This document shows, in pieces, positions 1-16,023 of a DNA stretch of 64,000 bases. Within the stretch, counting starts at the first letter, position 1. Each line of letters starts with the position of its first letter. The notes under the pieces are model-generated. The model did not search any database. It was not told the DNA's origin and saw nothing but the letters and a program-made list of their open reading frames with translations. Made by a program: the position numbers and the translations under genes. The stretch is from positions 1-64,000 of IMG/VR virus record IMGVR_UViG_3300028920_000035; one strand, written 5' to 3'. Source of the stretch: a virus.

Positions 1-2
1 CC

Positions 3-512
3 CTCATCTACCGCGGGGCGGGTGGAATTGCTCGGGGCACGAGTGCCCTTCTCTGGAGCATCCCCGATGTAATTCGGGGGTCGAGCCTGATGTTCGGTGA
101 CCCCGTCGTCGAGCGGGCTCTACCCCCCATCAAAGCTATCCTCCCCCCACCCAAGCAGTTTCGGTATGGCCAGCGCCTGACTCGGGGGGGCCTGAGCATC
201 TACTTGTGCAATCAGGCGGGGCCCATCATCCCAGCCCACATCAGCTTCACCTTGTATCAAGTGCGATCGGATGGGTCCCGTTTTCGGGTGGGCCCCAAGG
301 ATCGAATCCCCGTCCCAGGCTCGATCGGCGAGTTCTACGTGACCGGGAGCGCAGGCGAGTGTGGGCAGCCTGGTTGTTGGCAGATCGAGTGGGTCGTCCA
401 ACAGAACGGATTGTCCCCTGTGCAGACCAGAAGGATGGACTTCTTGGTCGTTGATGCTGCGGCTTCCCCCTGCGACAATACTCCAAGGGTCAGGAAGTAC
501 GGGTGGAGTTGA
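3..512 (+). CDS. 5'-truncated putative virion protein (beta-rich, paralogous to the N-terminus of the next gene)
   Basis: Frame is open from nt 3 (LIYRGAGGIARG...) into the 90..512 ORF, so the true start is probably upstream of the window. FRYGQRLTRGGLSIYLCNQAG...ISFTLY...GEFYV aligns with LYRGQQLGPTDLDIYLANSSG...IHYALY...GHYYA of the next gene. Confidence 0.7.
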   Translation, partial: LIYRGAGGIARGTSALLWSIPDVIRGSSLMFGDPVVERALPPIKAILPPPKQFRYGQRLTRGGLSIYLCNQAGPIIPAHISFTLYQVRSDGSRFRVGPKDRIPVPGSIGEFYVTGSAGECGQPGCWQIEWVVQQNGLSPVQTRRMDFLVVDAAASPCDNTPRVRKYGWS

Positions 513-515
513 ACG

Positions 516-1406
516 ATGAGCGTCGCATTGTATCGAGGTCAGCAGTTGGGTCCCACCGACCTGGACATCTACCTGGCGAATAGCTCTGGGCGCCCGACGG
601 ACGCAGCTGAGATCCACTACGCCCTGTACGACTTCACGACGGGCCAAGAAGTATTGCTGGGGGTGCCCCGCCGTGAGCCTGGGCACCCTTCCGTTGGCCA
701 CTACTACGCGAGCGTCGTGATTCCCCTCGATGCCCGGCTGGGTGACTATCGCATCCGGTGGACCTTTCGAGAGACCATCGGTGGGCCTGTTCAGCAGGTT
801 GTGCAGGAGTTCACTGTGGTGGACAAGGTGATTGACAATACCAGTGATCTCACGGTTTGCCAGCGAGCCATGGTTCATTCCCTGCGCATTCTGCTTCGGG
901 ACAACTCCCCGGACCGGAATTACCATTTCCGCCCACCCACCCACGAGAACACGATCACCCAGTACAACCGGGTCTTCGGTTTCATCTGGGAGGATGACGA
1001 ACTGGTTGAGTACCTTAATCGCGCGCTCGACATGATCAGCGCGGCCCCGCCGCGGACGGTCATAATGAGCTGTGAGCAGCTCTACCAGCAGTTTCCCGAG
1101 TGGCGGACCTTGGCGCTCAACGGGGCAATGATGCACGCGCTCATGGCGCTGACCCTCAACTGGATTGCCGACGAGTTTGACTACTCGATCGGTGGGGTCA
1201 GTTTGGCCATCGAGAAGTCGAGCAAGTACGAGAGTGCCTACGGAAACCTCCGGGACAGCTTCGAGTCTCAGCTGGAAAAGGCCAAGCAAACCATCAAGAT
1301 CGTCAAGGGTTTGCAGCAGCCTCGCTTTGGCACCGGCATACGTAGTGCGTTTGGCCCCTATGTAGGTCGAGGTGCTATGAGTCCCCGAAAGTTCGTGTCA
1401 TTCTAA
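516..1406 (+). CDS. Putative neck / head-tail connector protein
   Basis: 296 aa. Beta-rich N-domain plus helical C-domain (WEDDELVEYLNRALDMIS...DYSIGGVSLAI) like head-tail adaptors; first in the neck cluster. Function inferred from position. Confidence 0.55.
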   Translation: MSVALYRGQQLGPTDLDIYLANSSGRPTDAAEIHYALYDFTTGQEVLLGVPRREPGHPSVGHYYASVVIPLDARLGDYRIRWTFRETIGGPVQQVVQEFTVVDKVIDNTSDLTVCQRAMVHSLRILLRDNSPDRNYHFRPPTHENTITQYNRVFGFIWEDDELVEYLNRALDMISAAPPRTVIMSCEQLYQQFPEWRTLALNGAMMHALMALTLNWIADEFDYSIGGVSLAIEKSSKYESAYGNLRDSFESQLEKAKQTIKIVKGLQQPRFGTGIRSAFGPYVGRGAMSPRKFVSF

Positions 1407-1416
1407 GGGTATTGGT

Positions 1417-1426
1417 GGTGTAATTT
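1417..1426 (+). promoter_or_regulatory. GGTG-TAnnnT putative -10 promoter element
   Basis: GGTGTAATTT in the intergenic gap; same pattern at 13922 and 16024. Confidence 0.35.
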
Positions 1427-1435
1427 TGGGGGTGT

Positions 1436-1684
1436 ATGTCCCCAGGAGGTGATCCGAAAGCCTTGTCCCGAGGGCGGCAAGGGGCAGCTCGAAAGAGGCG
1501 GCAAGGTGCACTTGAGCGGTGTATCTTCTGCAAACGTGACCCTGAGCATCACCACAGGGGGTGCCCCTTGGCCTCCAATTGCGATGTCCGACGGCGCTTG
1601 TTGCAGCGGCACCAAGTGGACTTGCTGCCGTTCATGATGGTGTTGAGGGTCTTGTCCAAATGCGAAAGCGGCGACGATGAGTGA
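1436..1684 (+). CDS. Small Cys/His-rich hypothetical protein (possible Zn-binding)
   Basis: 82 aa with CIFC...HHH..C; its stop overlaps the next start (ATGAGTGA). A competing 62-aa frame (1449..1637) exists. Confidence 0.45.
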   Translation: MSPGGDPKALSRGRQGAARKRRQGALERCIFCKRDPEHHHRGCPLASNCDVRRRLLQRHQVDLLPFMMVLRVLSKCESGDDE

Positions 1685-2015
1685 TGAACAGCAGTCAAAA
1701 CGCCTGACTCCCGATGATCCTCTCTCCCGAGAGGAGATGGCCCAGCTGGATCTGCTGGAGGATGCCTACCAGCAAGTGGGGCGGCGCATGCTCGACATTG
1801 AGCTGGAGAAGGTGCAAATACTGGCCGCGGGGCGTCGGTTGCGAGGGCAGCGGATGGAACTATTTGATAATATCCTCGTCAACCGGGGATTGGACCCGAA
1901 GACTCCCTGTGAAGTTGACCCTCGAACCCACCGGCTCCATGTCCTGGCAAGCCCCAAGGAGGAGTCCGAAGTTCCGCAGGAGGCCCCTCCGGAGCCTGAG
2001 TCCTCCAAGGAGTGA
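1677..2015 (+). CDS. Hypothetical coiled-coil protein
   Basis: 112 aa, typical codon bias, helical heptads, acidic/Pro-rich tail. Confidence 0.75.
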   Translation: MSDEQQSKRLTPDDPLSREEMAQLDLLEDAYQQVGRRMLDIELEKVQILAAGRRLRGQRMELFDNILVNRGLDPKTPCEVDPRTHRLHVLASPKEESEVPQEAPPEPESSKE

Positions 2016-2049
2016 CCTGCGCTTCCATCTATGGCACCCTTCTTGAAGG

Positions 2050-3405
2050 ATGCCCTACGCGAGCCAACGAGATCGACGGCCTCACCAGCTCGAACTGGAG
2101 TCCACTCCGTGGCCCGTGGCCCCGCTCAATCTGTCCCTTCAGAGTGGCTACGAGCCTGGCGTCTACGAGCTGACCTGGGATAACCCGGCCTACCAGGGGC
2201 TGAACGCCAAGTTTAGCATTCTGGGGGTTAACCTCTATCGGAGTTTCGACAGTGAGTTCGGGCCCTACGAGCGGATCAGTGAGTTGCCGATTGGTGCCAT
2301 GTTTTGGCGGGACCGGACCGACGTGGTGGTCGTGCCGGACGAGGACGTGACCGGGAGCTTCATCATCAACGGGGTGGCGGGCAATCAATACCCAACGACC
2401 CACCGCTACGTTTTCCGCACAGCCGCCCCCATCGTCAAGTCCGGCAGTCAAGGCGTCCCAGCGCACGAGCCCACGGATGTGGTGGTTTGCATCGACGGCG
2501 TGCCGACGCGGGTCATCAACGTCCACGGTGAGCGCGGCGAAGTCGAGATTGACCCGGACCTCTACCACCAGGTCGCCACCCAGAGCGTCGAAGAGCGTGT
2601 CCTACCGGGGCCTGGGCGCCGGGTAACATGCACCTACCGGTGTATGAAGAACTTGCTCCGAACTGACCTGATGCGGCGGGTCTTCTATCGCATCACGACC
2701 GTGGGTATGGTGCCTTGCGACACCCCTTGCTCCGACCCAGCGTCTCTCTTGGAGACCCCCTTGGACCGGGCCGCCTTTACCTCGAACCACGAGGTCGAGA
2801 AGATCGATTGGGCTTGGTCTGAGGCCATTCGGCGCAACCGTTGGATTCTTGATCAGGGTGGCGAGCGGGTGAAGGTGTTCATCCGCAAGACCCATGGGCC
2901 TTCCTGTCCTTGTGTCCAGTTTGACCACCACAAGCAGCCCCAGAACGACTGTCATACCTGCTACGGGGTGGGGGTCTTGGGCGGCTATGAAGGGCCCTAC
3001 GACATCGTGATTGCCCCTGACGATGCCGAGCGTCGAATCGCTCAGCGGGAGACAGGACGTACGGTCGAGCACACCTATGAGGTCTTCACGGGCCCAAGCC
3101 CTATCCTTTCGATGCGGGATTTCATCTGCAAGGTCAACGGGGAGCGGTACTCGATCGGGCCAGTACGTTTCCCCAGCAACCGTGGCAACGTGCTCCAGCA
3201 GCACTTCAACATCGGTCACCTCGACGAGAAGGACATCCGCTACCAAGTTCCGGTCAGGCCTGTACTGATCGAGGGTGCCAACCGGGTCGTACCCTCAATT
3301 CCAGCGCATAATGCCCCACCCGAGATCCAGACGGAGAAGGGTAACATTCCGGATGAGCGGGAGTTGCGTGGGCACACCACCACCTGGAAGAATATAACCT
3401 ACTGA
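2050..3405 (+). CDS. Putative neck / head-completion protein with N-terminal Fn3-like domain and Zn-binding motif
   Basis: 451 aa. PVAPLNLSL...ELTWDNP...GVNLYRS is Fn3-like; GERVKVFIRKTHGPSCPC...CHTCYGVG..GGY resembles large-phage head-closure proteins; neck cluster context. Confidence 0.55.
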   Translation: MPYASQRDRRPHQLELESTPWPVAPLNLSLQSGYEPGVYELTWDNPAYQGLNAKFSILGVNLYRSFDSEFGPYERISELPIGAMFWRDRTDVVVVPDEDVTGSFIINGVAGNQYPTTHRYVFRTAAPIVKSGSQGVPAHEPTDVVVCIDGVPTRVINVHGERGEVEIDPDLYHQVATQSVEERVLPGPGRRVTCTYRCMKNLLRTDLMRRVFYRITTVGMVPCDTPCSDPASLLETPLDRAAFTSNHEVEKIDWAWSEAIRRNRWILDQGGERVKVFIRKTHGPSCPCVQFDHHKQPQNDCHTCYGVGVLGGYEGPYDIVIAPDDAERRIAQRETGRTVEHTYEVFTGPSPILSMRDFICKVNGERYSIGPVRFPSNRGNVLQQHFNIGHLDEKDIRYQVPVRPVLIEGANRVVPSIPAHNAPPEIQTEKGNIPDERELRGHTTTWKNITY

Positions 3406-3920
3406 TGATCGGGACCCCCACCATCAAGATCGCTGGCCGGGTCAACTTCAAGCCTCTGGTTCCAGACGCCATCACGGAGGACCTCGACACCAAGAAGGTG
3501 CTGAGGGCTCTGGGGCGAGAGATTGCTCGCCGGTTCAAGCGAGGCATTGAGGACGAACACTTCAGCAACGCGGCCAAGGACCGCCTGAAGGAATCGATTG
3601 GCATCAAGGTGGGCGACAGCAGCGTGACCATCGTTGCTAAGCACAAGGCGTTCCTGCCCTTGCTGGAAGGTCAAAAGCCTGGGCAGATGCGGTGGCTGGT
3701 CAAGGCCCAGCGGCCGATTCCCATCATTACCGACGATGGCGAACTAATCTTCCGCAGCGCGACGGCCCGCTCGATGGAGAATGGATCCTGGTACCACCCC
3801 GGCCGTGGGGGCACCACCTACCTTCAACGCGTACGCAAGGAGGCTCGGGCCGTTATCCGGGAGCGCATACGCCGGGAGCTACAGCGTTCGGTTCGTCGCT
3901 GGTATGTGAAGACAGGATGA
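3405..3920 (+). CDS. Putative neck / tail-completion protein (HK97 gp10-like fold possible)
   Basis: 171 aa, basic, RLKESI...HPG...YLQR pattern of gp10-like virion morphogenesis proteins; translationally coupled. Confidence 0.45.
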   Translation: MIGTPTIKIAGRVNFKPLVPDAITEDLDTKKVLRALGREIARRFKRGIEDEHFSNAAKDRLKESIGIKVGDSSVTIVAKHKAFLPLLEGQKPGQMRWLVKAQRPIPIITDDGELIFRSATARSMENGSWYHPGRGGTTYLQRVRKEARAVIRERIRRELQRSVRRWYVKTG

Positions 3921-4492
3921 GTCATCGCGATGGAATCACCGTGGTGGGCCGCGTCACCGGAAGGCACCCAATCAAGGACCTGCGAACGGATATCCCATTC
4001 AATGTGGCGGTTACGTTCACCAACGACCAGAGGCTACGGTCTCGTGACCTTCAGATCGCTATCCAGCAGGGGTGGGTCACGGTTCTCGATGGGACCGTTC
4101 AGGCCAGCAACCACCTTCCACCCCCACCGGACTACCTCCCTGATGATCGGCTGGAGCGCCTGGAGAAAGAGAATCGGGAGCTAAGGGAGGAGCTGCTGGC
4201 CGAACGGGAAGAGAAGCGGGTCCTACGGTCGTCTCTGAACGCCCTCCAGAATCGCCTGGGCGATGTTTTGGCTGCGGTGGAGCGCCTGGGCCAGGGTCAG
4301 GTTGTCCAGGTCGTCCAGGGGGCGGTAGGCGCCCCCGCGGGTCCTGTGGGCGCCTCCTCCGCGCCCATGTACGTCCCCGATCTCGGGGCTGTGGAAGTTG
4401 AAGAGTCCCGGGTGGAGGTCGAGACCAAGGAGGGCACTTCCGTGTCGGCGGCACGCAACGCCCTCAAGAAACTCCGTTCGGGCCAGGCTTGA
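3917..4492 (+). CDS. Coiled-coil protein (candidate adaptor of the actin-like ATPase)
   Basis: ATG overlaps the previous stop (ATGA 3917-3920); 191 aa. Small N-domain, long heptad coil (RLERLEKENRELREEL...LQNRLGDVLAAVERL), short basic C-terminal helix (SVSAARNALKKLRS). Confidence 0.75.
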   Translation: MSHRDGITVVGRVTGRHPIKDLRTDIPFNVAVTFTNDQRLRSRDLQIAIQQGWVTVLDGTVQASNHLPPPPDYLPDDRLERLEKENRELREELLAEREEKRVLRSSLNALQNRLGDVLAAVERLGQGQVVQVVQGAVGAPAGPVGASSAPMYVPDLGAVEVEESRVEVETKEGTSVSAARNALKKLRSGQA

Positions 4493-4532
4493 CCTTCTTT
4501 TGATGGCGCCTCCCCTGGTGGGAGACCGTCTC

Positions 4533-5234
4533 ATGCATTCTACTCAGCGCCGCCTACTCCGCACCGCCCGCAAACTAGCTTGTGACTGTGGGGGAGGCGA
4601 TCAGATTGTCGATTCGATTGAAGCCGTATGGCAGGACCCCACCCAGTTCAGTCTCAGCAAGAACGGGCCCCCCTACTTCAAGCTCGCGTCCGAAGACGAC
4701 CGGGCAGGGATCGTTAAAGAAGCCGCTGAGCGGGCAGGTACCGCTAAGGAGCTGCTCAACTGGGTGGCTTCCTGGGATACAGTTGAAGCTCCCTACGCAC
4801 CGTTGGTCCACCTGCTTGTGATCTACAAGGCGGTTTTCCATATCCACCAGACCCACCATTGGCTGACCAGCGGGCCCTCGTACTATGGGGACCATTTACT
4901 GTTCCAACGGCTCTACGAAGAGCTGGACGACCTCATCGACGGCATTGCCGAGCGCTCCATCGGTTTGAATGGACCCATCGTCGATCCGGTCGACCTTGCC
5001 ATGCGGATCGGGATGGTGGTTAAGTTCATCTACCCCCAAGATCCGAACATGGACCCCTCGGAGTTGGCGGAACGAAGTCGATCGGTGGTTTTGATGGGCA
5101 TCCAAGCCATTCGCGTCGTCATCGAGCATTTGAAGTCCAAGGACTTGATGACTGCGGGCCTTGACGACCTTTTGCCTGCCCACGCAGGGGTCTTTGAGAG
5201 CCATGCTTACCTCACACGACAACGTGTGTCATAA
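4533..5234 (+). CDS. Dps/ferritin-like protein with N-terminal extension
   Basis: HQTHHWLTSGPSYYGDHLLFQRLYEELDDLIDGIAERSIGL matches the Dps ferroxidase signature (HW..xG...xH..F...Y......D..AER...L). ATG 4533 follows GGGAG. Confidence 0.8.
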   Translation: MHSTQRRLLRTARKLACDCGGGDQIVDSIEAVWQDPTQFSLSKNGPPYFKLASEDDRAGIVKEAAERAGTAKELLNWVASWDTVEAPYAPLVHLLVIYKAVFHIHQTHHWLTSGPSYYGDHLLFQRLYEELDDLIDGIAERSIGLNGPIVDPVDLAMRIGMVVKFIYPQDPNMDPSELAERSRSVVLMGIQAIRVVIEHLKSKDLMTAGLDDLLPAHAGVFESHAYLTRQRVS

Positions 5235-5264
5235 ACCCCCAAATCAGATCAGATAGGAATCCCA

Positions 5265-6308
5265 ATGCAGAAGAAATCGGAATCCGAACTGCCTGGCGTC
5301 GGTCTTGACGTCGGGACCATGAACCTTGTGTCTGCCCGGGAGACGGGTGACCCGAAGTCCCCTAAGACCGTCACCAAGAACGTAAGGGATGCCTTTCTCG
5401 ACCTTGACCCCGACGCCAAGCGAGCCCTCAAGATGAGTGGGGTCAGCTACATCGTGCACAAGGGCCGTCTCATCGTGCTGGGCGATTCTGCCCTGACGAT
5501 GGCGAACTTGTTCAAGCGCGAGGCGCGACGACCTCTGTCGAAGGGCGTCATCTCGGCGGGTGAGTTGGACGCTCAGGAGATCCTCAGCCGTTTGGCCTAC
5601 CACGTGCTGGCGGATCCTGTCATCGACGGTGAGTTTTGCTACTACTCGGTCCCAGCAAACCCTGTGGACGAGCAAGGCCAGAACACATTCTACCACCAAG
5701 AGGTGTTCCGCAAGATCCTGAGCAACCTGGGGTACTCACCAAAGCCGATGAACGAGGCCCAGGCCATCATCTTCAGTCAGTGCGCTGACTACACCTTCAG
5801 TGGGATTGCGGTGAGCTTCGGAGCTGGGATGTGTAACATCTGCCTGAGCTATCGAGCCACCACGGTGTTTTCGTTCTCGATCGCCAAGGGCGGTGACTGG
5901 GTGGACACCAACGCGGGCCACGCCGTGGGCAAGACAGCCTCCCAGATGTGTGCCCTCAAGGAAAAGGGCATTGACCTTTCTCCCACGACAGACGACCGCG
6001 AGTCCGAAGCGATCATGTTCTACCTTCGCGCGCTCATCGGCTATTGCCTGCGCGGGGTCGCTGACGAGTTCAACAAGCGCCGAGGGGATGTGGACCTACC
6101 TGATGCCATCCCTATCGTTGTGTCAGGCGGGACCAGCAAGGCGCACGGGTTCCTCGACCTCTTCAAAGAAGAGTTTCAAAGCCTTCGTCAGCAAGGATTC
6201 CCCATCAAAGTCAGTGACATTCGAGCGGCTACTGACCCGCTCACAGCTGTAGCCGAAGGGCTACTGGTGCTCGCTCGAGACGAGCACTCCGAGGAGAAGG
6301 AAGAATGA
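5265..6308 (+). CDS. Actin-fold ATPase (MreB/MamK superfamily; volactin-like)
   Basis: 347 aa with all actin motifs: phosphate-1 GLDVGT, YSVPA, connect-1 MNEAQAII, phosphate-2 SFGAGMCN, KGGDWVD, adenosine VVSGGTS, connect-2 DPLTAVAEG. Confidence 0.9.
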   Translation: MQKKSESELPGVGLDVGTMNLVSARETGDPKSPKTVTKNVRDAFLDLDPDAKRALKMSGVSYIVHKGRLIVLGDSALTMANLFKREARRPLSKGVISAGELDAQEILSRLAYHVLADPVIDGEFCYYSVPANPVDEQGQNTFYHQEVFRKILSNLGYSPKPMNEAQAIIFSQCADYTFSGIAVSFGAGMCNICLSYRATTVFSFSIAKGGDWVDTNAGHAVGKTASQMCALKEKGIDLSPTTDDRESEAIMFYLRALIGYCLRGVADEFNKRRGDVDLPDAIPIVVSGGTSKAHGFLDLFKEEFQSLRQQGFPIKVSDIRAATDPLTAVAEGLLVLARDEHSEEKEE

Positions 6309-7783
6309 TTCGATTCCCCAAAATCGGTCGTGTTTTTTCCTCCCCCGAGGCCCTCAAGCGGTATTTACAAGAGCATCCGAAGGCAGACCCTTCCAAGCAC
6401 TCTGTCAGGGGTAAGCCCAAGGGTGATAAGCCCAAGGGTGATAAGCCCAAGGACGATAAGGGGAAGGACGATAAGCCCAAGGACGATAAGGGGGAGGGGG
6501 AATCCAAGGGTGATGGGGGGAAGCCGGAAAAGGGGGCTCTCGATAGTGCTATTGATGAGGCCATCCACACTTTCCTCCGCCAGAAGAATCTGACCGAGGG
6601 GCAAAAGAAGCGCGTGCTGGAGCAGGCGATTTCTGACTCTGAGACGGAAAGCAAGGGAAAGGCCCGCAAACTGGTCAGGGACTTTTCCAAGGAAGAAGGG
6701 TTCGAGTCGCTGGAGGGACTGTCCAGTGCCGAACAAAGAAAGGTGATTGAAAGGGCATTGAAGATGGCAAACCAGCGTATTGCATCCCAGGCACAGAAGC
6801 TCGCATTGACAGACCCCAAGGCAGCCTATGATCTGTTGGATCAGGCATACTTTCCCACCGACAAGACCGCTCGTTTGAGAGTACTAGACCTTTCGGATGG
6901 GTATGCTGTGGAGGACACTGACGGAGGCATTTGGTGGCCTGATGACGATGCCCAGGAGGAGATTGCGGAGAGTCGAGACCCCGAACGATCTGCGCTTCAG
7001 ATGGCCCAGAGGCAGCCTCGTCGGGGCATCTGGAAAGATGCCGCTGTGCAGGCAGAAACCTTGGCATCTTCTAACCCCAAGGCAGCCTATGATCTGTTGG
7101 ATCAAGCCTACCTTTCCACCAACAACGCTGCCAAGGTTGCTCGGTCAGTACCCGATATTGATGTGGAGTTCGTAACTCCTCGATCCAACCAGGGTCAAAT
7201 GATCGAGGTTTCGTACTCTTTCTCAGCTGACGACGACGGTTACCTCTATAAGAAGGTGTTGAACCGTGGGTCAGGGAAGGTGACCTACTACCAGGTACAT
7301 GCTGAGGACGTGCGAGGTAAATGGGAGCCTTGGAACAGGGAACCTAAAGCTCGATTCAGGAAGCTGGCTGGTTTCTCCCAGAAGACGATGCGTGCTCACT
7401 TTGAGGAGTTCACCTACGAGGTGCTGAGTACGGTCTACGAGTACGTGGCCATGCTGCACCGTCGTATCAGCCGGCAGGAACGATTTCAGGATGTGCCAGG
7501 GTTCACCAACTGGGATATGTCCCAGAGCATCAGGGGATCCGGGAACGAAGCAGAGGGTCGTGTTTGGCTCAAGGGTGGCCTTGCCATGGACAACGGCATG
7601 GATGGTACCATCAACGTCAAGTTGACTCTGGTAGGTGATGGCGTGCAGCTCGAAGCACTGGACTATCGGACCTCTTTGGTGTCACGACGCTTCAAGTTGA
7701 CCAACACGGCATCCGGTATCGGCATGGCCGTGGGAGAGGCGTGGGAACGCAAGCTCACGGGTAGTGTGGATTACGGCGACTGA
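6305..7783 (+). CDS. Modular hypothetical protein (candidate head-internal polyprotein)
   Basis: 492 aa. K/D/G/P low-complexity linker, duplicated PKAAYDLLDQAY segment, several small domains separated by KLA/KTA/KVA motifs. Confidence 0.75.
   Translation: MIRFPKIGRVFSSPEALKRYLQEHPKADPSKHSVRGKPKGDKPKGDKPKDDKGKDDKPKDDKGEGESKGDGGKPEKGALDSAIDEAIHTFLRQKNLTEGQKKRVLEQAISDSETESKGKARKLVRDFSKEEGFESLEGLSSAEQRKVIERALKMANQRIASQAQKLALTDPKAAYDLLDQAYFPTDKTARLRVLDLSDGYAVEDTDGGIWWPDDDAQEEIAESRDPERSALQMAQRQPRRGIWKDAAVQAETLASSNPKAAYDLLDQAYLSTNNAAKVARSVPDIDVEFVTPRSNQGQMIEVSYSFSADDDGYLYKKVLNRGSGKVTYYQVHAEDVRGKWEPWNREPKARFRKLAGFSQKTMRAHFEEFTYEVLSTVYEYVAMLHRRISRQERFQDVPGFTNWDMSQSIRGSGNEAEGRVWLKGGLAMDNGMDGTINVKLTLVGDGVQLEALDYRTSLVSRRFKLTNTASGIGMAVGEAWERKLTGSVDYGD
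6412..6486 (+). repeat. 5 x 15-nt tandem repeat (TAAGCCCAAGG(GT/AC)GA) encoding KPKGD/KPKDD
   Basis: Units at 6412, 6427, 6442, 6457 (variant GGG) and 6472. Confidence 0.9.
6813..7104 (+). repeat. 31-nt identical direct repeat (ACCCCAAGGCAGCCTATGATCTGTTGGATCA) at 6813-6843 and 7074-7104
   Basis: Direct sequence comparison; copies 261 nt apart and in frame. Confidence 0.9.
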
Positions 7784-8977
7784 GTGTACTACTACCTGAT
7801 CTCCAGTCTGAAGCGGCGCCTGATCCTGGAGCTACAGGACGTCTTCTCGCGGCATCCCGTCTACTCGAAGATCGTCCCCTACATTCAGAATCGGTACAGC
7901 TTCGAGGAGCGCCCCCAGCACGGCATTGTCGTCAAGGGTTCGAGCGCTAATAAGGTACAGTTGTCAGCTGACAACTTCATCGGAGAGATCCAAAGCCACG
8001 TCATGCTTGCCTATGTGGGCGGGCCTGCCTTTCCCTTGGAGTGGGTCCGTGAAGACCTCCAAGCCGTCAGCTTCAATGGCAATGCCATGCCGACTCCACC
8101 AGGGGTTTACTACATCGAAATCCTGGAAGCGCCCACCAACCCGAACGAGCCTGGGTACTACGCCATTGATCCTCTGCTCACACGGACGGCAGAGCCGCTT
8201 TTCCAGTTCCAGAGCGGCGTCGAAAGAGAGGCACAGCTTCAAGCGGTCCCGGTAGAAGGGACCCTCCGTATCTGGGAAAATGAGCGACGGCTTCTCCGAG
8301 AGGGGGTCGAGTATGTGGTGGATTATAGCACGGGCGCTGTGACCTTGACGGGGGACTTCTTTGCAGGCGCCACCCTTGTTGCTGACTACCGCACGGCAGC
8401 ACCCTCGGTCGGACCAGTGGCGTTTGGCTGGAACCAGTCCGATTTCACGACTTTGCCAGGCGTCGTTCTGGCGTTCGGCAAGCGAGCTCGGAAAGGGGAC
8501 AAGGTTGCCGTCGTCATCTACCCTGAGCGAGTTTCGACGGCGCTGGCCTATGGTGGCAAGTTCGAGGTTAGCTTTGACCTGGATGTCATCTCCCGCGACA
8601 CCAACCAGATGGAAGAGTTGGCGGACTTGACCGTCATGTACCTGTGGGGGGAGAAACGCCAGTATCTGGCCTTCGAGGGTATCGAGATTACTGACGTCAA
8701 CATGGGTGGTGAGGCCGAGGAAGTCGCCGATGAGACGGGCGATCTCTACTTCTACCAAGCGAGTCTTGGTGTTTCGATCCAGGCCGATTGGGAGATCCAT
8801 GTCCCGTTGCCGCTGACCATCAGCCGCATGGAGACGAATCCTGAAGACCCCTCCCCAGGTAGCTCGTGTGACCCTGGAGAGGACCCCTTCGGTCTTAAGC
8901 AAGTTGCTTCGTCGTTGTTCTATGCCACCCACCCCGTGGTGGCGGGTCGGAACAACTCGTTCGAGCGAATCGGATAA
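7784..8977 (+). CDS. Putative tail terminator / tail-completion protein
   Basis: 397 aa, GTG start. RYSFEERPQHGIVVKG and FEVSFDLDVISRDTNQMEELAD fit the gp15/gpU-like fold with an inserted beta domain; just upstream of the sheath. Confidence 0.55.
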   Translation: MYYYLISSLKRRLILELQDVFSRHPVYSKIVPYIQNRYSFEERPQHGIVVKGSSANKVQLSADNFIGEIQSHVMLAYVGGPAFPLEWVREDLQAVSFNGNAMPTPPGVYYIEILEAPTNPNEPGYYAIDPLLTRTAEPLFQFQSGVEREAQLQAVPVEGTLRIWENERRLLREGVEYVVDYSTGAVTLTGDFFAGATLVADYRTAAPSVGPVAFGWNQSDFTTLPGVVLAFGKRARKGDKVAVVIYPERVSTALAYGGKFEVSFDLDVISRDTNQMEELADLTVMYLWGEKRQYLAFEGIEITDVNMGGEAEEVADETGDLYFYQASLGVSIQADWEIHVPLPLTISRMETNPEDPSPGSSCDPGEDPFGLKQVASSLFYATHPVVAGRNNSFERIG

Positions 8978-8994
8978 GGATAGAATGTGAAGCC

Positions 8995-9429
8995 ATGCCC
9001 AAGTACAGTTTTGAGTGCCCCAACTGCAAATTGACTTTCTCACGGATGCTCAAGGTGGGGGAGCACCCCGACCACCCGTGTCCTAAGTGCAAAGGGGCAG
9101 CTAAACGACACTGGCACGGGCAAGGAGTATCCTTCAATTTCCAGCCGACCCCGGGCACCGATCAAGGTAATAGCGGTGTCACTAAGGATGACTACCCGAC
9201 GGCGGACCACCTCGTGGGACGGACCGCCGATCAGCGGTGGGGCCACATCCGTGAACGAGACGCCGCCAAGGCAGAGTTGCGGCAGAAAACCGGGACCCAT
9301 GCCTTGCGTCGTCAAAACGGCCCCGGATTCATCGATTACACGAGCATGGACGAGGGGGCCCGCACTCGGCGACGGGAGACGGCCAGGGAAGCCCTGGCGG
9401 CCCAGGAGGCCGTCAATCAGGACTCGTGA
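8995..9429 (+). CDS. FmdB-family zinc-ribbon protein
   Basis: MPKYSFECPNC...CPKC is the characteristic FmdB/CxxC_CXXC_SSSS N-terminus. Confidence 0.8.
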   Translation: MPKYSFECPNCKLTFSRMLKVGEHPDHPCPKCKGAAKRHWHGQGVSFNFQPTPGTDQGNSGVTKDDYPTADHLVGRTADQRWGHIRERDAAKAELRQKTGTHALRRQNGPGFIDYTSMDEGARTRRRETAREALAAQEAVNQDS

Positions 9430-9568
9430 CGTACCCGTTGATAAAGAGCTTTTGCAGCTTCTTTGGGTGAGTTGAGGGCTCAGCATCCAGATGTAGATCG
9501 AATCCAAGCGCCCCTAGAAACGAATCCCGATCCAAAAACCCTAAGAAGAACCCGTAAAGGAGAGCACC

Positions 9569-12500
9569 GTGGCTCTTGGACCTTTCGTCACCTACGTACC
9601 CCCTGGTGTCTACACCCGCACCCTGACCGAGGCCAATGTTGCTTCGTTGGTGTCCGGTCTGCGTATCCCCGTCTACATCGGGGTTGGCCAGGAGGAACTG
9701 GAGCAGCTCGATCTGGAGCTGGTACGCGGTTCGAGCGCCACGCTCGACCAGCAGATCAACAACGAGGACGTCAGTCAGCGCTTTGTGCTCGACGAGACAA
9801 ACCCTAGCAACCCAACGCTTGGGCCGACCGGTGGCACGGTCGCGAAGTTCCAAGTCCGGAACTTCCCCATCGTGGACGGGCAGGGGTTTGGTCGAACCAC
9901 GAATGATGTGCGGTCGGTCCTGGTCACGGTCGATGGTGTCGCCGTAGGAGTGGGGTCGGTCCAAGGCGCCCTGGGCATGGTGACGCTCCAGGTACCGCCG
10001 GCTGCGGGCGCAGACGTCCGCTGCACCTACTTCTTCCACCGTGGCGACACCTCGTTCACGGACGACGTGTCCGACCAGGTGACCCAGGAAACGGCAACGC
10101 TCACGACTCCGGCCGTAGCCGACTTCGTGTTCGTCTTGGGGACTACAGACGAGTTCATTCTCACGATCGATGGGACTGGGGTAGAAATCACCATCACCGA
10201 GGGGACCTACACGGCTACGGGTCTGAAGAGTCACATCGACTCCAAGGCGATCAGCGGGCTGGTCATCTATGTCGAGGCCGACGCCGAGGGCAACGACCAC
10301 CTCAAGTTCGAAGCGGCACAGAGCCTCGTCATTGGTGCTGGCAACGCCAACGGGGTATTGGGCTTCTCGCCCGGCGCCCAGACGAACCGCAACCGCAACT
10401 TCCGCGTCTTCCAGCGTCCTGTCGTGGACGGTACCGACGGCGGCATCACGACGACCGACACGACCAAGGTCGTCGCGGTCGTGAACGGGACCCAGGTCGT
10501 GGTTGAGGCTCTCGACGGCGTGAACGGCGTCGTGACCTTGCCCTTCGCCCCACCGCGTAACTCCACGGTATTCGTCCAGTATTGGGCCAACACATGGCAG
10601 GACACGTTTGACTACCTGCCCAACACGCTGGTCACGACGGTCATCCGCAGCGGTTTCGCGACGGGCCGCAACGACTACATCCAGGGTCAGGATTTCGTCA
10701 TCTCGAACCCGAGTCCGGACGTCTCCGTCATCCACTGGGGTGCCAGCGTCCAGGTCAGCAGCATTCTGCGGACCCCGGGCGCCGAGGTCTTCGATGACAC
10801 CCAGATTCTGCCGACCCTTGTCGACGATCGCCTCTACCTCACCGAGTGCACTCGCGTCGTGGACACGACAGTCGTTCCCGCGGTCCCCAGCACCAAGCAG
10901 TTCCTGCTCCCCCAGGTGCCGACGACTGGCAACGGTCGCGATACACCACTCGGGCAGACCTTGTACAACACGGTCTCCAACAGCCGCATCGGGCTCAACA
11001 CCAATCGTCCCGATCTCGTGGTGGCCTATGCCGGCCGTGACGTGAAGGACGCGACCTCCCGCAACGCGCTGACGGTGGTGGAGGTCAACGCCGACACCCG
11101 GCAGGTGACCTTCCGCGAGACGGTGCCCCCTGACCACAACGTGTACGCCACGTTCTGGTACAGCCGACTTGCTGACGATCAGTTCACCATGACCAACAAG
11201 GTCGCGGGTGCGGTCGGCACCGGCCAGTTTGAGGTCTTCTCGGGCAGCCAAAACCGCAATCTTCACCAGATCCGGTTTGGGACCAAGACGGGCTTGCCCG
11301 AGATTGTCCAGTGGCCACGTGGTGTCGAGGGCATCCCCGATGCGCACCACACGGGCGCGGGCACGCCGGTCAGCGAAGAGGTGACCGTGACCTTTGGGTC
11401 TGCTCTGGCCCAGAACGCCGTCTTCACGACGACGGGCGCTGGCCCTTGGAGCTTCTTCGCGGGCACCAGTGACCAGTTCCGCGTGACGGTCAATGGCACC
11501 GATTTCGACGTTGACCTCGACGTGGCGGTCCCGGGGCAGCTGATCTCTGACAAGATCGCGGTGGATGGCTCCGACCAGATCACCATCGTGTCCGGGGACA
11601 TCCTGGAGCTGACGATCGACGGCATCGACATCACAGTCGACTTGTCCGCGCTGGCGGGTACGCCCACCATCACGGCGGTCGTGGCTGCCATCAACGCTGC
11701 CATTGACGCTGATGCTGCCTTCATTGGTACGGCGCCGAACGACTTGGTGGGCTTCGTGCGCCTGGGCCCCGCGGGCTCCGACCACGTGATCACCATCGCG
11801 AGCCTCGAAGTTCCGGTGGCACTGCCCGACGGCTTCGACAACACCTCCGCGGTGTCGATCCGTCAGGGGACCGCAGAGGCCAAGCTCGGCTTCACGGCGT
11901 TCCAGTCGGCGAGCGGCACTCCGACAGCGACCAACAAGCCGGCGACGGTCCTTGGTACCGAGGCAGGCACGTTCAACATCACCCTCAACGCCACCGATAC
12001 CCTGGAAATCCGGGTCGACGGTATCGACTACACGGTCACACTCCCCCACGGCGCGGCTGTGACACCGGCTTCTGTCGTGGGCGCCATCAACGCTACCCCG
12101 GGCCTGACGGGCGTGGCCAGCTCGAACAGCAGCGGGCCCAACGCTGACAAGATTCGCCTCACCAGTCCGACCAACGGTGCCACGAGCCGTATCGGCATTC
12201 TGGGTGGGACAGCAAACGAGATCCTGGGTTTCATCCAGGGTGACGAAGCGGGCCAGACCTTGGTCGACATCGAAGAGGTCGTCAATGAGATCCTGGCGTT
12301 CACGGGCTTCGTAGCAGAAGGCATCGCCTATATAGCGGAGATCGATGGGGCCGAGTACCTCACCATCGAGTCGGCTACGGTGGGGGCCACGACTTCCAAT
12401 GTGTCGTTCCGTACGGGGACGTCGAGCGCGTTCAACTCGACCACCGGAACCGGAATCATAGCTAACACGAGCGGCGACAACGGCGAGGACGCCTATGACA

Positions 12501-13837
12501 ACTTCGTCGTTACGTCCAACAACGCTAACGGTTCCAGCGGTACGGGCGTTCCGGGCCAGACCTATGTGGATGCTACTACGGGCTTGACCTTCACGGTCCT
12601 TCCGAGTGTCACGGGTAGCTACACGAGTACGGGTGCCTTCACCCTGATCGTGAGCGAGACCTGGACCGTCAGCCCGGCGGTACCAAGCTACAGCGTGGGT
12701 GGCCTGGAGCTGATCGTGACCGACACCGTTGGTGTTGGCGTCAACGACTCAGCTCGACTCCAGACGTTCAACCCTGGTGGCCAGGAGCCGGCGGTTGGCG
12801 ACTTCTACTACGTCTCGTACCGCTACCTGAAGCAGGATTTCTCGACGCGCCTGTTCGCCCAGTTCAAGACCATCGAGGCCAACTACGGGCCACTGACGGG
12901 CGAGAACCGAGTGACCTTGGCGGGCTACCTTGCCATTCTCAATGGTGCGGTCTTGGTCGGCATTAAGCAGGTCCAGAAGGTGGTCAACACCAACCAGGCC
13001 AGCGACCAGGACTTCATCACCGCCATCGGCGAGCTGGCGACCCCACTGCCGGGCAACATCCGTCCGGACGTTATGGTGCCGTTGACGACCTCTCCGGCCG
13101 TCTTCCAGTACTTGATGCAGCACTGCGAGGTTCAGTCGGGCATCCGCTACCAGAGCGAGCGCATGGGCTTCATTGGGTTTGCGAGCGGCACCATCCCGAC
13201 CACGGCCCAGGCGGTGGCTCGAGGGCTGCTCTCCAACCGCATCGTGGCGAGCTACCCGGATGGAGGGGTGATCACCCTGACCAACGAGCTGAACGAGTCC
13301 TACGACCAGCTCGTGGATGGTACCTTCCTGGCAGCGGCTCTCAGCGGCTCGGCGGTTTCCCCTGCTGTGGACGTGGCGACGCCGTACACCCGCCGGATCA
13401 TCCAAGGCTTCTCCTCGCTCCAGCGAATCCTCGATCCCGTCGAATCCAATCAGACGGCGGTCGCGGGCATCACGCTGTTCGAGGACCTCGACCCTGTGAT
13501 TCGGGTCCGCCAGGGCCTGACCACGGACATGAGTTCAGTCCTGACCCGGCTGCCGACGATCACCCAGATCGCCGACTACGTGCAGCAGCAGTCGCGGGCC
13601 ACGCTCGATGTGTTCGTCGGGACCAAGTTCCTGTCGAGCCGCATCAACGAGGTTGAGACGTCGATGGCGTCTCTGATGAGGCAGCTTATCCAGGAAGAGA
13701 TCGTTGCGGCATTCACGGGTATCTCGGCAGAGATCGACGCCGAAGACCCGACGATCATGCGGGTTGAAGCCTTTTATCAGCCTATATTCCCGCTTTTGTA
13801 CATCGTGATCACGTTCAACCTGAGAGCAAGGATTTGA
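9569..13837 (+). CDS. Contractile tail sheath protein (very large, with inserted beta domains)
   Basis: 1422 aa. N-terminal YVPPGVYTRT and C-terminal VRQGLTTD...VEAFYQPIFPLLYIVITFNL are sheath signatures; RBS AAGGAG. Confidence 0.9.
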   Translation: MALGPFVTYVPPGVYTRTLTEANVASLVSGLRIPVYIGVGQEELEQLDLELVRGSSATLDQQINNEDVSQRFVLDETNPSNPTLGPTGGTVAKFQVRNFPIVDGQGFGRTTNDVRSVLVTVDGVAVGVGSVQGALGMVTLQVPPAAGADVRCTYFFHRGDTSFTDDVSDQVTQETATLTTPAVADFVFVLGTTDEFILTIDGTGVEITITEGTYTATGLKSHIDSKAISGLVIYVEADAEGNDHLKFEAAQSLVIGAGNANGVLGFSPGAQTNRNRNFRVFQRPVVDGTDGGITTTDTTKVVAVVNGTQVVVEALDGVNGVVTLPFAPPRNSTVFVQYWANTWQDTFDYLPNTLVTTVIRSGFATGRNDYIQGQDFVISNPSPDVSVIHWGASVQVSSILRTPGAEVFDDTQILPTLVDDRLYLTECTRVVDTTVVPAVPSTKQFLLPQVPTTGNGRDTPLGQTLYNTVSNSRIGLNTNRPDLVVAYAGRDVKDATSRNALTVVEVNADTRQVTFRETVPPDHNVYATFWYSRLADDQFTMTNKVAGAVGTGQFEVFSGSQNRNLHQIRFGTKTGLPEIVQWPRGVEGIPDAHHTGAGTPVSEEVTVTFGSALAQNAVFTTTGAGPWSFFAGTSDQFRVTVNGTDFDVDLDVAVPGQLISDKIAVDGSDQITIVSGDILELTIDGIDITVDLSALAGTPTITAVVAAINAAIDADAAFIGTAPNDLVGFVRLGPAGSDHVITIASLEVPVALPDGFDNTSAVSIRQGTAEAKLGFTAFQSASGTPTATNKPATVLGTEAGTFNITLNATDTLEIRVDGIDYTVTLPHGAAVTPASVVGAINATPGLTGVASSNSSGPNADKIRLTSPTNGATSRIGILGGTANEILGFIQGDEAGQTLVDIEEVVNEILAFTGFVAEGIAYIAEIDGAEYLTIESATVGATTSNVSFRTGTSSAFNSTTGTGIIANTSGDNGEDAYDNFVVTSNNANGSSGTGVPGQTYVDATTGLTFTVLPSVTGSYTSTGAFTLIVSETWTVSPAVPSYSVGGLELIVTDTVGVGVNDSARLQTFNPGGQEPAVGDFYYVSYRYLKQDFSTRLFAQFKTIEANYGPLTGENRVTLAGYLAILNGAVLVGIKQVQKVVNTNQASDQDFITAIGELATPLPGNIRPDVMVPLTTSPAVFQYLMQHCEVQSGIRYQSERMGFIGFASGTIPTTAQAVARGLLSNRIVASYPDGGVITLTNELNESYDQLVDGTFLAAALSGSAVSPAVDVATPYTRRIIQGFSSLQRILDPVESNQTAVAGITLFEDLDPVIRVRQGLTTDMSSVLTRLPTITQIADYVQQQSRATLDVFVGTKFLSSRINEVETSMASLMRQLIQEEIVAAFTGISAEIDAEDPTIMRVEAFYQPIFPLLYIVITFNLRARI

Positions 13838-13845
13838 AAATCCTA

Positions 13846-13883
13846 GTGTTTTTGGCCTGACCTATGGGTCGGGCCAAAAACGC
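13846..13883 (+). terminator. 17-bp stem-loop after the sheath gene (terminator or processing/stabilising hairpin)
   Basis: GTGTTTTTGGCCTGACC-TATG-GGTCGGGCCAAAAACGC; both mismatches are G:U-compatible; no 3' U-tract. Confidence 0.5.
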
Positions 13884-13921
13884 GGCAGGCCAATAATTGT
13901 AGGGTCCCTGGGCCGTTTGGG

Positions 13922-13931
13922 GGTGTATGCT
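13922..13931 (+). promoter_or_regulatory. GGTG-TAnnnT putative -10 element (leaderless start at 13939)
   Basis: GGTGTATGCT, 7 nt, then ATG with no SD. Confidence 0.4.
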
Positions 13932-13938
13932 CTTGAGC

Positions 13939-15978
13939 ATGAACCGGTCCCAAGCTTTGGAAGCCTTCTCCACCGACGAGCCCTTCAAGGCTGTCGCAAA
14001 GCGGTTGGGTATGAGCCCCAACACGTTGCGGAGGTTGTGGAAGGAACGCTATGGGGAGGCCGCCTTCAAGGAACGAGGCTGCCGCATCCAGCAGCTGGGA
14101 GCCACAGCCTACGGGGCGCGGACCAAGGGTCGCGCAAAGGCGCGGACCCAGGTAGAGGTCCAATGCTCACAGTGTGGTAAACCCTTTCAGGTGACGAGGG
14201 GGCAGCGGGCGAAGGCCAGGCGTCTAGTCTGCCCTTCATGCTCGACGGCAGGCAAAGAGGTGTGCCCGGTGTGTAACCTTCACTGCGATGGGGCGAAGGG
14301 GTTGGCAACACACTTCCGCCACCAGGCAGAGGACCCCCCTCATCGAGAATGGCTCGCCGAGCGCGAGGCTGCCAAGTGGAAAGGCTTGACGGAGGGGCTG
14401 GACTATGTGACCTGCCGCGTGTGCGGGCTCAACGCCCACGCCTTGACGGGGCACCTGCGGGTACACCAGCTGACGGCTGAGGAGTACCGCGCGGACCACC
14501 CTGACGCCCTCGTCGTCGCGTCACGAGTCGAGGCACGGAGGCAGGCAGCCTTGGCCCCGATAGCGGCTGAGCGCGCCTATGGGTGGTCACGTGAGGACTT
14601 GCTGAAATTCTGTGACGAGCAGGGCAAGGTGATTGTCGCTGAGGCCGCCATGTACCTGAAGGCGGCCCCTTTGACGGTCTTGCACTACTGCCGGAGCCTT
14701 GGGCTGCCGACCCGGAACCGATTGGCGTGGCAGCGTGCGGTCCTCGACAAGGCTGCAAAGGTCTGGGGGGCCAAGTACCAGTGGGAGTGGTCAACGCCAG
14801 AGATCCGGAACCCCAACACGGGCAGGATGCTCAACTACGACGGCTACTTCCCTTCTCTGAACCTTCTGCTCGAAGCACATGGGGAGCAACACTTCCGCTA
14901 TTCCGAGGCATGGCACGGCTCGCTAGAAGCCTTCAGGACATCACGGCGCAGGGACGAGTTCAAGAAGGCTCGGGCCGAGGAGTTGGGCTATGGTTACAGG
15001 GTCGTCAAGTTCACCGACCCCTGGGACACTGACGAGTTCTGGGAGGCCCTCAAGCTGGGCACGCCCGAGCGCCCAGCGAATCTTGAGGACAAGGTATTCC
15101 ACATCTTGAGACAGGCGGGGTTCCCCCGCCCGGAGCCCAACGTTGCCGAGGCCAAGAAGGCTCTGACCAGGCTGGGATCGACACGTTGCTTCTTGGACGA
15201 CGACTTCCACGTGCGCCCGTACAGCATCGCGGGGACGGCCGCGTGTGCGTCTTTCTTCCCCAACCGCTACCATGCTCACTACCGGGGGGCGAAGAGCGCT
15301 TTTGAGGCATGGCATGATGACGAGGCATTGCGAAAGGCAATCCGGCTGCAATTGGACAGTGGCCATCCGACGACACCAGAGCGTGTGCTTCGGGCGCTGG
15401 TAATGCACCATCGGACGCCTTCGGTGTTTCGACCTGCGGTTGCTAAATACGTCTATCAGACCTACGCCCCCGGCGGTGTTGTGTGGGACCCCTGTGCGGG
15501 TTATGGTGGCCGGCTCATGGGGGCAGTGGCGGCGGGGGTCGAGAGGTATGTTGCAACCGAGGTCGAGCCCGAGACCATCGAGGGAAACCGCGCCTTGGCT
15601 CAGGCTTTAGGTGTCACTATGTGCGAGCTGCATCAGGAAGGAGCCGAGGGATTTGACCCTGGCCCAGTTGACCTTGTGTTCACGTCGCCTCCCTACCTCG
15701 ACTTGGAGGTCTACGGTTCAGCTTCTCAAGCTGACTGCTCTACGTGGGTCGACGAGTTTCTAGTCCCCGTTGTCCACCGCGCGGCTCAGCGCCTTTGGGC
15801 AGGAGGGCACCTGATCCTCAATCTGCCGTTCAAGCCAGTGCGAGGGCTTCGTTTGGACTTGGAAGCCAAGGCGCTCGCCGAGAGGGAGGGGCTGGTGGAG
15901 GAGCCGACCGTGTGGATGCCTGTCCGCGCCTTCAGGGGCCCCTTCAAGGCCGAACCTCTTCTGGTGTGGCGTCGCTAA
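13939..15978 (+). CDS. HTH / Zn-finger / PD-(D/E)XK-like endonuclease / DNA amino-methyltransferase fusion
   Basis: HTH (VAKRLGMSPNTLRRLW); CxxC ribbons; two C2H2-like fingers (CPVC..HFRH; CRVC..HLRVH); nuclease motif YDGYFPSLNLLLEAHGEQH...RDEFKK; MTase motif I DPCAGYGG and motif IV FTSPPY. Start may be 13927. Confidence 0.8.
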   Translation: MNRSQALEAFSTDEPFKAVAKRLGMSPNTLRRLWKERYGEAAFKERGCRIQQLGATAYGARTKGRAKARTQVEVQCSQCGKPFQVTRGQRAKARRLVCPSCSTAGKEVCPVCNLHCDGAKGLATHFRHQAEDPPHREWLAEREAAKWKGLTEGLDYVTCRVCGLNAHALTGHLRVHQLTAEEYRADHPDALVVASRVEARRQAALAPIAAERAYGWSREDLLKFCDEQGKVIVAEAAMYLKAAPLTVLHYCRSLGLPTRNRLAWQRAVLDKAAKVWGAKYQWEWSTPEIRNPNTGRMLNYDGYFPSLNLLLEAHGEQHFRYSEAWHGSLEAFRTSRRRDEFKKARAEELGYGYRVVKFTDPWDTDEFWEALKLGTPERPANLEDKVFHILRQAGFPRPEPNVAEAKKALTRLGSTRCFLDDDFHVRPYSIAGTAACASFFPNRYHAHYRGAKSAFEAWHDDEALRKAIRLQLDSGHPTTPERVLRALVMHHRTPSVFRPAVAKYVYQTYAPGGVVWDPCAGYGGRLMGAVAAGVERYVATEVEPETIEGNRALAQALGVTMCELHQEGAEGFDPGPVDLVFTSPPYLDLEVYGSASQADCSTWVDEFLVPVVHRAAQRLWAGGHLILNLPFKPVRGLRLDLEAKALAEREGLVEEPTVWMPVRAFRGPFKAEPLLVWRR

Positions 15979-16023
15979 GGCACCTTTCCGTTTATCTTCC
16001 CGATGCCAAGGTTGCTCTGGTTT

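Follow-up and report, generated by a model that had tools for sequence, protein, structure and literature searches.

The window analyzed here, the first 64 kb (64,000 nucleotides, nt) of a 147,622-bp linear IMG/VR record (IMGVR_UViG_3300028920_000035), is part of the virion module of an uncultured, huge contractile-tailed phage (myophage), and it carries a gene for an actin. The product of this open reading frame (ORF), 5265-6308, belongs to the volactin family and is an ATPase with a genuine actin fold, as both its sequence and its structural model indicate; the gene is fixed in a clade of huge, uncultured phages with contractile tails, where it is locked in the virion-morphogenesis operon. 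A coiled-coil protein encoded a short distance upstream (ORF 3917-4492, hereafter the adaptor) is a credible partner of the actin, because the two genes are adjacent in deep relatives, the C-terminal tail of the adaptor is conserved, and the pair passed a complex prediction. On balance we lean toward a reading in which the actin forms dynamic volactin-type filaments late in infection, with the tail of a dimeric adaptor engaging filament ends or monomers while its N-terminal domain (N-domain) holds a cargo.

An actin of the volactin family

ORF 5265-6308 matched the Pfam family Volactin (PF25216) across profile positions 3-321 of 321, with an E value of 1.7e-68 and a score of 231.9 bits relative to a cut-off of 35, and a six-frame search of the genome gave the same result for this ORF. 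Volactin was the sole actin-like family recovered in the Pfam scan at E <=0.01, with no match to MreB_Mbl, MamK or ParM/StbA, which bears out an earlier note on this DNA that had favored volactin over MreB, ParM and MamK. Neither the actin nor the adaptor falls in any PHROGs family, and a comparison of the actin with the sequences of solved structures returned FtsA alone (E 0.35).

The actin-fold motif set described in the earlier note is complete, as read both in the sequence and in the alignments. All the nucleotide motifs are present: phosphate-1 (GLDVGTMN, residues 13-20), connect-1 (NEA, 163-165), phosphate-2 (SFGAGM, 184-189), the adenosine motif (SGGTS, 287-291) and connect-2 (AEGLL, 330-334), with GGDW at 209-212. 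The 23 phage and 29 archaeal sequences aligned have the combination GLDVGTMN / SFGAGM / GGDW / SGGT in the same or nearly the same consensus form, and residues S184, G186, G188, M189, G210, D211 and W212 are invariant (alignment A1). Probable haloarchaeal volactins (discussed later) show GLDVGTMNI, ISFGAGMTNV and GGDW at equivalent positions. The same note had singled out the phosphate-2 loop as unusual: serine does stand in it in place of aspartate, but archaeal volactins share the substitution, and the Ser-for-Asp loop SFGAGM is, as far as these alignments reach, a trait that marks the volactin family throughout, in archaea too, rather than a peculiarity of the phage protein.

An AlphaFold model of the actin, built from 27 relatives (predicted local distance difference test, pLDDT, 89.9; predicted template modeling score, pTM, 0.88), was compared with other structures using Foldseek and VIA-align. 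The closest solved structure was the MamK filament 5ljv_A (Z 28.6; root-mean-square deviation 2.9 over 295 residues; 22% identity), and further matches included BeeR (Z 26.5), MreB (Z ~26), and crenactin and eukaryotic actin (Z ~25). The closest solved chains all come from filament formers, with DnaK appearing only at rank 46, and the likeness to MreB and MamK is structural only, at 16-22% identity. The viral structure library held nothing close; its best entry was gp506 of Bacillus phage G (12% identity), followed by viral Hsp70 homologs.

Conservation and phylogeny of the phage actin

A word-indexed search returned 1,715 relatives of the actin, the best of them 58-66% identical and many on contigs of 200-620 kb, and an exhaustive search gave 1,026 clusters (50% identity) with E <=0.001. 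From IMG/VR, 98 relatives were found and 80 loci were retained for synteny; the orthologs there are ~60-65% identical and lie on contigs of up to 513 kb. One gene order, ORF 516 - 1677 - 2050 - 3405 - adaptor - Dps-like - actin - terminator - Zn-ribbon - sheath, is common to 73 of the 80 loci. To avoid bias from searching with the actin itself, we also used the tail terminator as the query, and all 70 loci that had at least 1.3 kb of upstream sequence carried the actin directly upstream of the terminator (median gap 13.5 nt), which is the basis for regarding the actin as fixed in the clade. Within the close clade, the actin and the terminator are equally conserved, each at ~60% identity, and the C-terminus of the sheath is somewhat more so, at 63-75%.

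Inteins typically occupy essential catalytic motifs. Several actin orthologs are split by them: in P0127, P0124 and P0131 the intein (HNH or Hint types) lies in or near the phosphate-2 loop, while P0123 has a LAGLIDADG intein at the GGDW motif. The orthologs thus present at least two separate intein insertion sites in one 347-aa (amino acid) protein, and these sites, at the phosphate-2 loop and GGDW, together with the ~60% identity among orthologs, point to functional constraint on the actin.

In a quick maximum-likelihood tree (LG+G4; 146 rows; rooted on Escherichia coli MreB), the window's actin fell in a clade of 18 huge-phage sequences with a support of 100 (Shimodaira-Hasegawa-like approximate likelihood ratio test, SH-aLRT), and the archaeal volactins formed a separate clade (support 99). 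The phylogeny that had been proposed as a check thus did not place the phage actin within the archaeal volactin clade; because the phage and archaeal clades are separate, the phage actin is, on the sequence evidence, a volactin family member and not an ortholog of the Haloferax protein. The tree gives no direction for any volactin gene transfer. A scan of genome contigs with an alignment recovered 13 cellular relatives, Hyphomicrobiales bacteria among them; a single-protein query gave none.

Two relatives of the actin have longer architectures. In P0161 (1160 aa), a volactin domain is fused to Wzz, GNVR and a ParA/MinD-like bacterial tyrosine kinase (BY-kinase), which are parts of polysaccharide chain-length machinery. 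In P0125 (729 aa), the Volactin profile matched in two stretches, with a full-length copy at 348-667, and the protein possibly contains a second volactin domain.

A candidate adaptor for the actin

The start of the adaptor gene overlaps the stop of ORF 3405-3920 by 4 nt. The earlier note had described its product as a 191-aa coiled-coil protein, encoded two genes upstream of the actin and ending in a short basic helix, and this description stands: in a Pfam scan at E 1, the middle part of the 39 adaptor orthologs matched coiled-coil families only (ZapB in 12 of 39, bZIP in 9 of 39), and the helix is conserved across the clade. The orthologs share an N-domain of ~65 aa, a proline-rich linker and a short leucine-zipper-like coil (LE.EN..LRE), and they end in a P.FIP motif, a short strand and a strongly conserved basic amphipathic helix (consensus AA..LR.LRK). 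This C-terminal tail is the best-conserved part of the adaptor in the ortholog alignment.

Throughout the close clade, the adaptor gene comes directly after ORF 3405-3920, and a Dps-like gene, sometimes with further inserts, stands between it and the actin. In the deep relatives L063 and L069, whose actins are 50% and 47% identical to that of the window, a protein of adaptor architecture is the immediate upstream neighbor of the actin, and homologs of ORF 3405-3920 and of the Dps-like gene are not detectable.

Complex prediction of adaptor and actin gave a score of 0.67, against 0.00 for the best of three controls. The mark applied to this score is reached by 58 of 80 solved complexes and by 2 of 110 mismatched pairs, counts that are only rough here, custom alignments having been used for both chains. 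The runs shared at least 43% of contacts, and the pLDDT of the partner was at least 59. The predicted contacts join adaptor residues 165-187 with actin residues 170-178, 197-198 and 323-342 and with the hairpin at 32-41; of these, 170-178 covers the last part of the connect-1 helix together with the loop that precedes the phosphate-2 strand, and 323-342 is the C-terminal helix. The model thereby supports a docking of the adaptor tail in the groove between actin subdomains IA and IIA (hinge helix 164-178, C-terminal helix 328-342). On ParM, the IA/IIA groove is used by the C-terminal helix of ParR, and in actin filaments it is filled by the next protomer. Of the checks that had been suggested for the coiled-coil gene and the actin, synteny in the two deep relatives (direct adjacency) and complex prediction came out in favor of the pair, whereas linkage in the close clade says little about a specific partnership.

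Upstream genes in other volactin groups

Archaeal volactins were recovered from genomes of the phylum containing the Archaeoglobaceae match. Those with the shared motifs are 36-39% identical to the phage actin, and some are acidic proteins encoded on GC-rich loci; these are probably haloarchaeal. The volactin of Haloferax forms dynamic filaments in vivo, touches the membrane solely with filament tips and affects cell shape, and its binding factors were unknown to the paper that named it (PMC10869688). At archaeal volactin loci (including L103, L105, L107, L109 and L096), the same-strand gene just upstream encodes a 250-307-aa membrane protein ending in a basic amphipathic helix, an observation made in the four readable loci among seven inspected. 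In Haloferax itself, a CdpA-like protein with four transmembrane (TM) segments, HVO_2016, adjoins the volactin HVO_2015 (PMC12126565).

Taken with the contacts between filament tips and membrane and with the tail of the phage adaptor, the archaeal upstream protein with its basic helix suggests, by analogy, a family-wide design in which an upstream partner would grip the actin with its tail, probably at filament ends. The CdpA-like upstream protein may then be the missing volactin-binding factor of the archaea, and the phages would have swapped a membrane anchor for a soluble N-domain and a dimerizing coil.

A distant viral volactin group (L075-L081, e.g., L078:7648-9008) is 35-36% identical to the phage actin and has no synteny in common with it. 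The gene directly upstream of these volactins encodes an 88-108-aa protein whose N-terminal stretch is hydrophobic and probably spans the membrane and whose tail (PKIETSFGD.RIG) is conserved; the adaptor idea may exist here in a membrane-anchored form.

Genomic neighborhood and phage type

Table 1. The actin, the adaptor and neighboring features of the window
Feature	Position	Strand	Basis and remarks
Head-tail connector-like protein	516..1406	+	PHROG 17327 'head-tail connector protein', E 3.2e-5; 60-72% identical across clade
Conserved 451-aa protein, probably virion	2050..3405	+	Weak PHROG 'virion structural protein', E 0.005; 57% identical in clade
Conserved 171-aa protein	3405..3920	+	Synteny; adaptor gene always directly after it in close clade
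Adaptor candidate, phage-only	3917..4492	+	191 aa; two genes upstream of actin; ortholog alignment, complex prediction
Dps/ferritin-like protein, long N-terminal extension	4503..5234	+	Pfam Ferritin, 25.1 bits vs cut-off 24.5; PHROG 3636, E 2e-10
Volactin-family actin-like ATPase	5265..6308	+	347 aa, ATG start; Pfam PF25216, actin-fold model
492-aa insertion ORF	6305..7783	+	Between actin and terminator; no family match
Tail-terminator (neck 'gateway') protein, inserted beta domain	7784..8977	+	Model pLDDT 78.5; terminator fold
Zn-ribbon protein	8995..9429	+	Pfam Zn_ribbon_8, E 4.7e-9; between terminator and sheath; syntenic in 66/80 loci
Tail sheath, 1422 aa, large insertions	9569..13837	+	Last 382 aa align with orthologs (A5)

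The earlier note had placed the actin between neck and tail-terminator genes (Table 1). This was secure on the downstream side, where ORF 7784-8977, beyond the 492-aa insertion, has the terminator fold; the neck label on the upstream side is weaker, depending on ORF 516-1406 (E 3e-5). The ESM Atlas gave the tail-terminator lead for ORF 7784-8977, which was afterwards confirmed by fold: in VIA-align its model reached Z 13-14.6 with the neck of phage 812, with the neck entries of E217 and Pa193 (including the gateway protein) and with T5 p142, Z 10.8-11.0 with lambda gpU and Z 9.4-9.6 with T4 gp15, and Foldseek gave a probability of 1.0 for several phage-neck entries. The sheath, in turn, was assigned by transitive homology. 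The window's own copy is below the Pfam threshold and resembles a normal sheath only over its last ~380 aa; its ortholog in the distant relative L069 (996 aa) matches Phage_sheath_1C (E 3.1e-8; 34 bits relative to a cut-off of 26.9). Profile searches of ORFs 7784, 2050 and 3405 and of the sheath C-terminus against PDB sequences gave nothing meaningful.

Of the genes upstream of the adaptor, ORF 2050-3405 is retained beside the actin module even in deep relatives. Its product has a four-cysteine cluster, in which C286, C288 and C304 are invariant and C301 nearly invariant, and an Ig/FN3-like sequence pattern at the N-terminus; searched in the ESM Atlas, it gave just unnamed viral clusters. ORF 3405-3920 matched no family and no solved structure. 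Among 61 close loci, 60 have the Dps-like gene directly before the actin; its start codon in the window is uncertain (4503 or 4533). L063 and L069 have no such gene between the adaptor and the actin, and this distribution marks it as a clade-specific neighbor outside the core actin-adaptor pair.

The ORF that follows the actin, 6305-7783, was detected by tblastn in only five of the 80 related loci, and in none of them does it separate the actin from the terminator. Most relatives have an actin-terminator gap of 3-60 nt, and because the median gap of the other loci is 13.5 nt, this ORF is, from comparison of the loci, a lineage-specific insertion. Within it lie a 15-nt tandem array of 5.3 copies (6412-6490) and, at 6788 and 7049, the two copies of a 77-nt direct repeat. 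No intergenic array of centromere-like repeats was found in positions 1-16000, the tandem arrays there being short or inside coding sequence. The statement of the earlier note that parC-like repeats are missing nearby therefore stands, since the lone tandem array near the genes is the coding one in ORF 6305-7783.

Downstream of the sheath, ORF 13927-15978 (683 aa) matches helix-turn-helix families and a Ros/MucR-type zinc finger only weakly and below threshold (the zinc finger at 24.2 bits relative to a cut-off of 25.4). Such a putative regulatory or DNA-binding ORF is unexpected within a tail block.

The record from which the window comes has a CheckV completeness of 31%, so the full phage genome should be ~450-480 kb, roughly half a megabase. 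In the window, GC content is ~60%, every long ORF is on the + strand and several ORFs exceed 1,000 aa; no tRNAs were found there, and very few of its proteins are recognized by standard family libraries. The window was identified as a contractile-tailed virion module by the tail-terminator fold, the sheath and ORF 34532-36538, which has an SLT transglycosylase domain (28.1 bits relative to a cut-off of 21.3) and also matches baseplate-hub PHROGs. An SLT lysozyme domain in a tail protein points to peptidoglycan, suggesting that the host is a bacterium. Tubulin, tail sheath PF04984 and terminase PF17289 had no matches on the phage's own 148-kb contig, a result that says little, the fragment being divergent and 31% complete.

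Proposed mechanism and alternative explanations

In the mechanism that we propose, the actin gene would probably be co-transcribed with the neck, terminator and sheath genes, with which it shares a strand and tight or overlapping gene junctions, and its product would most likely polymerize late in infection into dynamic filaments, by analogy with Haloferax volactin. The adaptor would dimerize through its short leucine-zipper-like coil and, as modeled, insert its C-terminal strand and basic helix in the groove between subdomains IA and IIA; because the next protomer fills this groove inside a filament, a groove-bound adaptor would be confined to filament ends or monomers. Its N-domain would tether a cargo, which is more likely to be a virion sub-assembly or assembly site than DNA, given the neck and tail gene setting, the lack of a nearby centromere array and the lack of a recognizable DNA-binding domain in the adaptor. 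A more specific possibility, which we put forward tentatively and with some doubt, is an actin-based assembly line in which (i) the adaptor captures filament ends, (ii) its N-domain grips neck or tail sub-assemblies, and (iii) polymerization positions heads, tails or the assembly site. If true, this would be the first viral actin cytoskeleton devoted to virion morphogenesis, and a tail-in-groove pairing, such as may exist between archaeal volactin and its membrane-anchored CdpA-like neighbor, would be reused with the anchor exchanged.

Several points weigh against filaments that carry cargo through an adaptor. The N-domain of the adaptor matched no known or DNA-binding family among the 39 orthologs (Pfam, E 1), so the nature of the cargo is a guess. 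In the close clade, where the adaptor gene goes with ORF 3405-3920 and other genes lie between it and the actin, synteny cannot by itself single out the actin-adaptor pair. The passed complex prediction may in part reflect actin-groove complexes, ParM-ParR for instance, that the predictor had already learned, since in known complexes the IA/IIA groove takes both a ParR helix and a neighboring protomer. The late timing is read from gene order only. The phage actins, moreover, group separately in the tree from the archaeal volactins, for which filaments have been observed, and in the GenBank phage collection only two records, both from uncultured huge phages, match the actin (48% and 30% identity), with no isolate among them.

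Three other explanations were weighed. The pair could position DNA in the manner of ParMRC or AlpAC, with the adaptor binding phage DNA and the filaments moving or segregating replicating or plasmid-like phage genomes. A dimerizing protein whose C-terminal helix is predicted in the IA/IIA groove follows ParR-like logic, and a prophage actin with a DNA-binding adaptor, AlpC with AlpA, is known (PMC4446434, PMC5539076). We nevertheless consider DNA positioning unlikely, if the least so of the three, as no intergenic repeat array was found within 16 kb, the genes lie between neck and tail genes and away from replication genes, and the searches gave neither a DNA-binding family for the adaptor N-domain nor a ParM/StbA match for the ATPase. 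Slightly more doubtful is an account that uncouples the two proteins: the coiled-coil protein would be an ordinary virion part, such as a fibritin-like whisker, a collar or a scaffold, and the actin would act alone, for example in remodeling host shape. Phages often have coiled-coil proteins in their necks and scaffolds, and this gene belongs to the neck module, with translational coupling to ORF 3405-3920; its linkage with the actin is unspecific in the close clade, where synteny extends over the whole block. An effect of volactin on cell shape is known in Haloferax (PMC10869688). What this account does not anticipate is that the adaptor gene is the immediate upstream neighbor of the actin in deep relatives lacking detectable homologs of ORF 3405-3920 and of the Dps-like gene, that the complex prediction passed with zero-scoring controls, or that the docking tail is the best-conserved part of the adaptor.

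The ATPase could instead be a non-polymerizing member of the acetate and sugar kinase/Hsp70/actin (ASKHA) group that helps neck or tail proteins to assemble, as a chaperone of the Hsp70 type, with the coiled-coil protein as co-chaperone or client. Closterovirus Hsp70 homologs assist virion assembly, the actin gene lies within a morphogenesis operon, and its structural matches in the viral library are mostly viral Hsp70 homologs, at 12-16% identity. The best solved matches are, however, filament-forming actins, headed by the MamK filament and with DnaK far down the ranking (46th); the protein, 347 aa in total, has no Hsp70 substrate-binding domain; and the founding member of its hidden Markov model family makes dynamic filaments in vivo (PMC10869688). 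A chaperone therefore seems to us the least probable of these alternatives, and dynamic filaments with a groove-binding adaptor remain the reading that we prefer.

Significance

Our literature search found no description linking volactin or PF25216 to phages, and the huge-phage papers that it covered, including the one of 2020, do not describe an actin. The PhuZ tubulin of nucleus-forming jumbo phages is the main example of a phage cytoskeleton known so far, together with one DNA-moving prophage actin, AlpC. To call phage cytoskeletons tubulin-based only would overlook this prophage actin and its adaptor AlpA (PMC4446434, PMC5539076). A phage-borne actin as such is thus already known, and what is new here is a different actin family, a different adaptor and a different genomic setting.

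This different actin family is fixed and strongly conserved in the virion-assembly operon of a widespread huge-phage clade (contigs up to 529 kb). If filaments form, bacterial viruses would own an actin system tied to particle assembly. The volactin family would gain its first candidate binding partners, and the predicted tail-in-groove contact can be tested directly using two small recombinant proteins.

Comparison with known systems

The volactin of Haloferax volcanii (VolA, HVO_2015) belongs to the Pfam family, PF25216, that the phage actin matches over its full length; probable haloarchaeal volactins and the phage actin have GLDVGTMN, SFGAGM and GGDW in common, and phage and archaea alike have an upstream gene whose product ends in a basic amphipathic helix. 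The two systems differ in that (i) the phage partner is a soluble coiled-coil protein, whereas the neighbor of volactin is a four-TM membrane protein, (ii) the phage genes lie in a bacteriophage virion-assembly operon and volactin on a cellular chromosome, and (iii) filaments have been seen for archaeal volactin only. MamK, which provides the closest solved structure, is likewise an actin and one that positions large cargo, but it is 22% identical and has a different partner and genomic context.

The ParM-ParR-parC system resembles the phage pair in combining an actin-like ATPase with a dimeric adaptor, the C-terminal helix of which is, in the phage, predicted to enter the IA/IIA groove. Unlike that system, the phage module has no centromere repeats, no StbA/ParM match, no recognized DNA-binding domain and a location among virion genes. 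AlpC-AlpA, from prophage CGP3 of Corynebacterium glutamicum, also pairs a phage-borne actin-like protein with an adaptor; AlpA binds DNA at the alpS sites, and this pair works in the replication and transport of viral DNA (PMC4446434, PMC5539076). It is a DNA-serving prophage system, whereas the present module lies in a probably late structural operon of huge lytic-type phages. PhuZ, finally, is like the phage actin a phage-encoded cytoskeletal polymer of very large phages, but it belongs to a different superfamily, that of tubulin; PhuZ delivers capsids to the phage nucleus.

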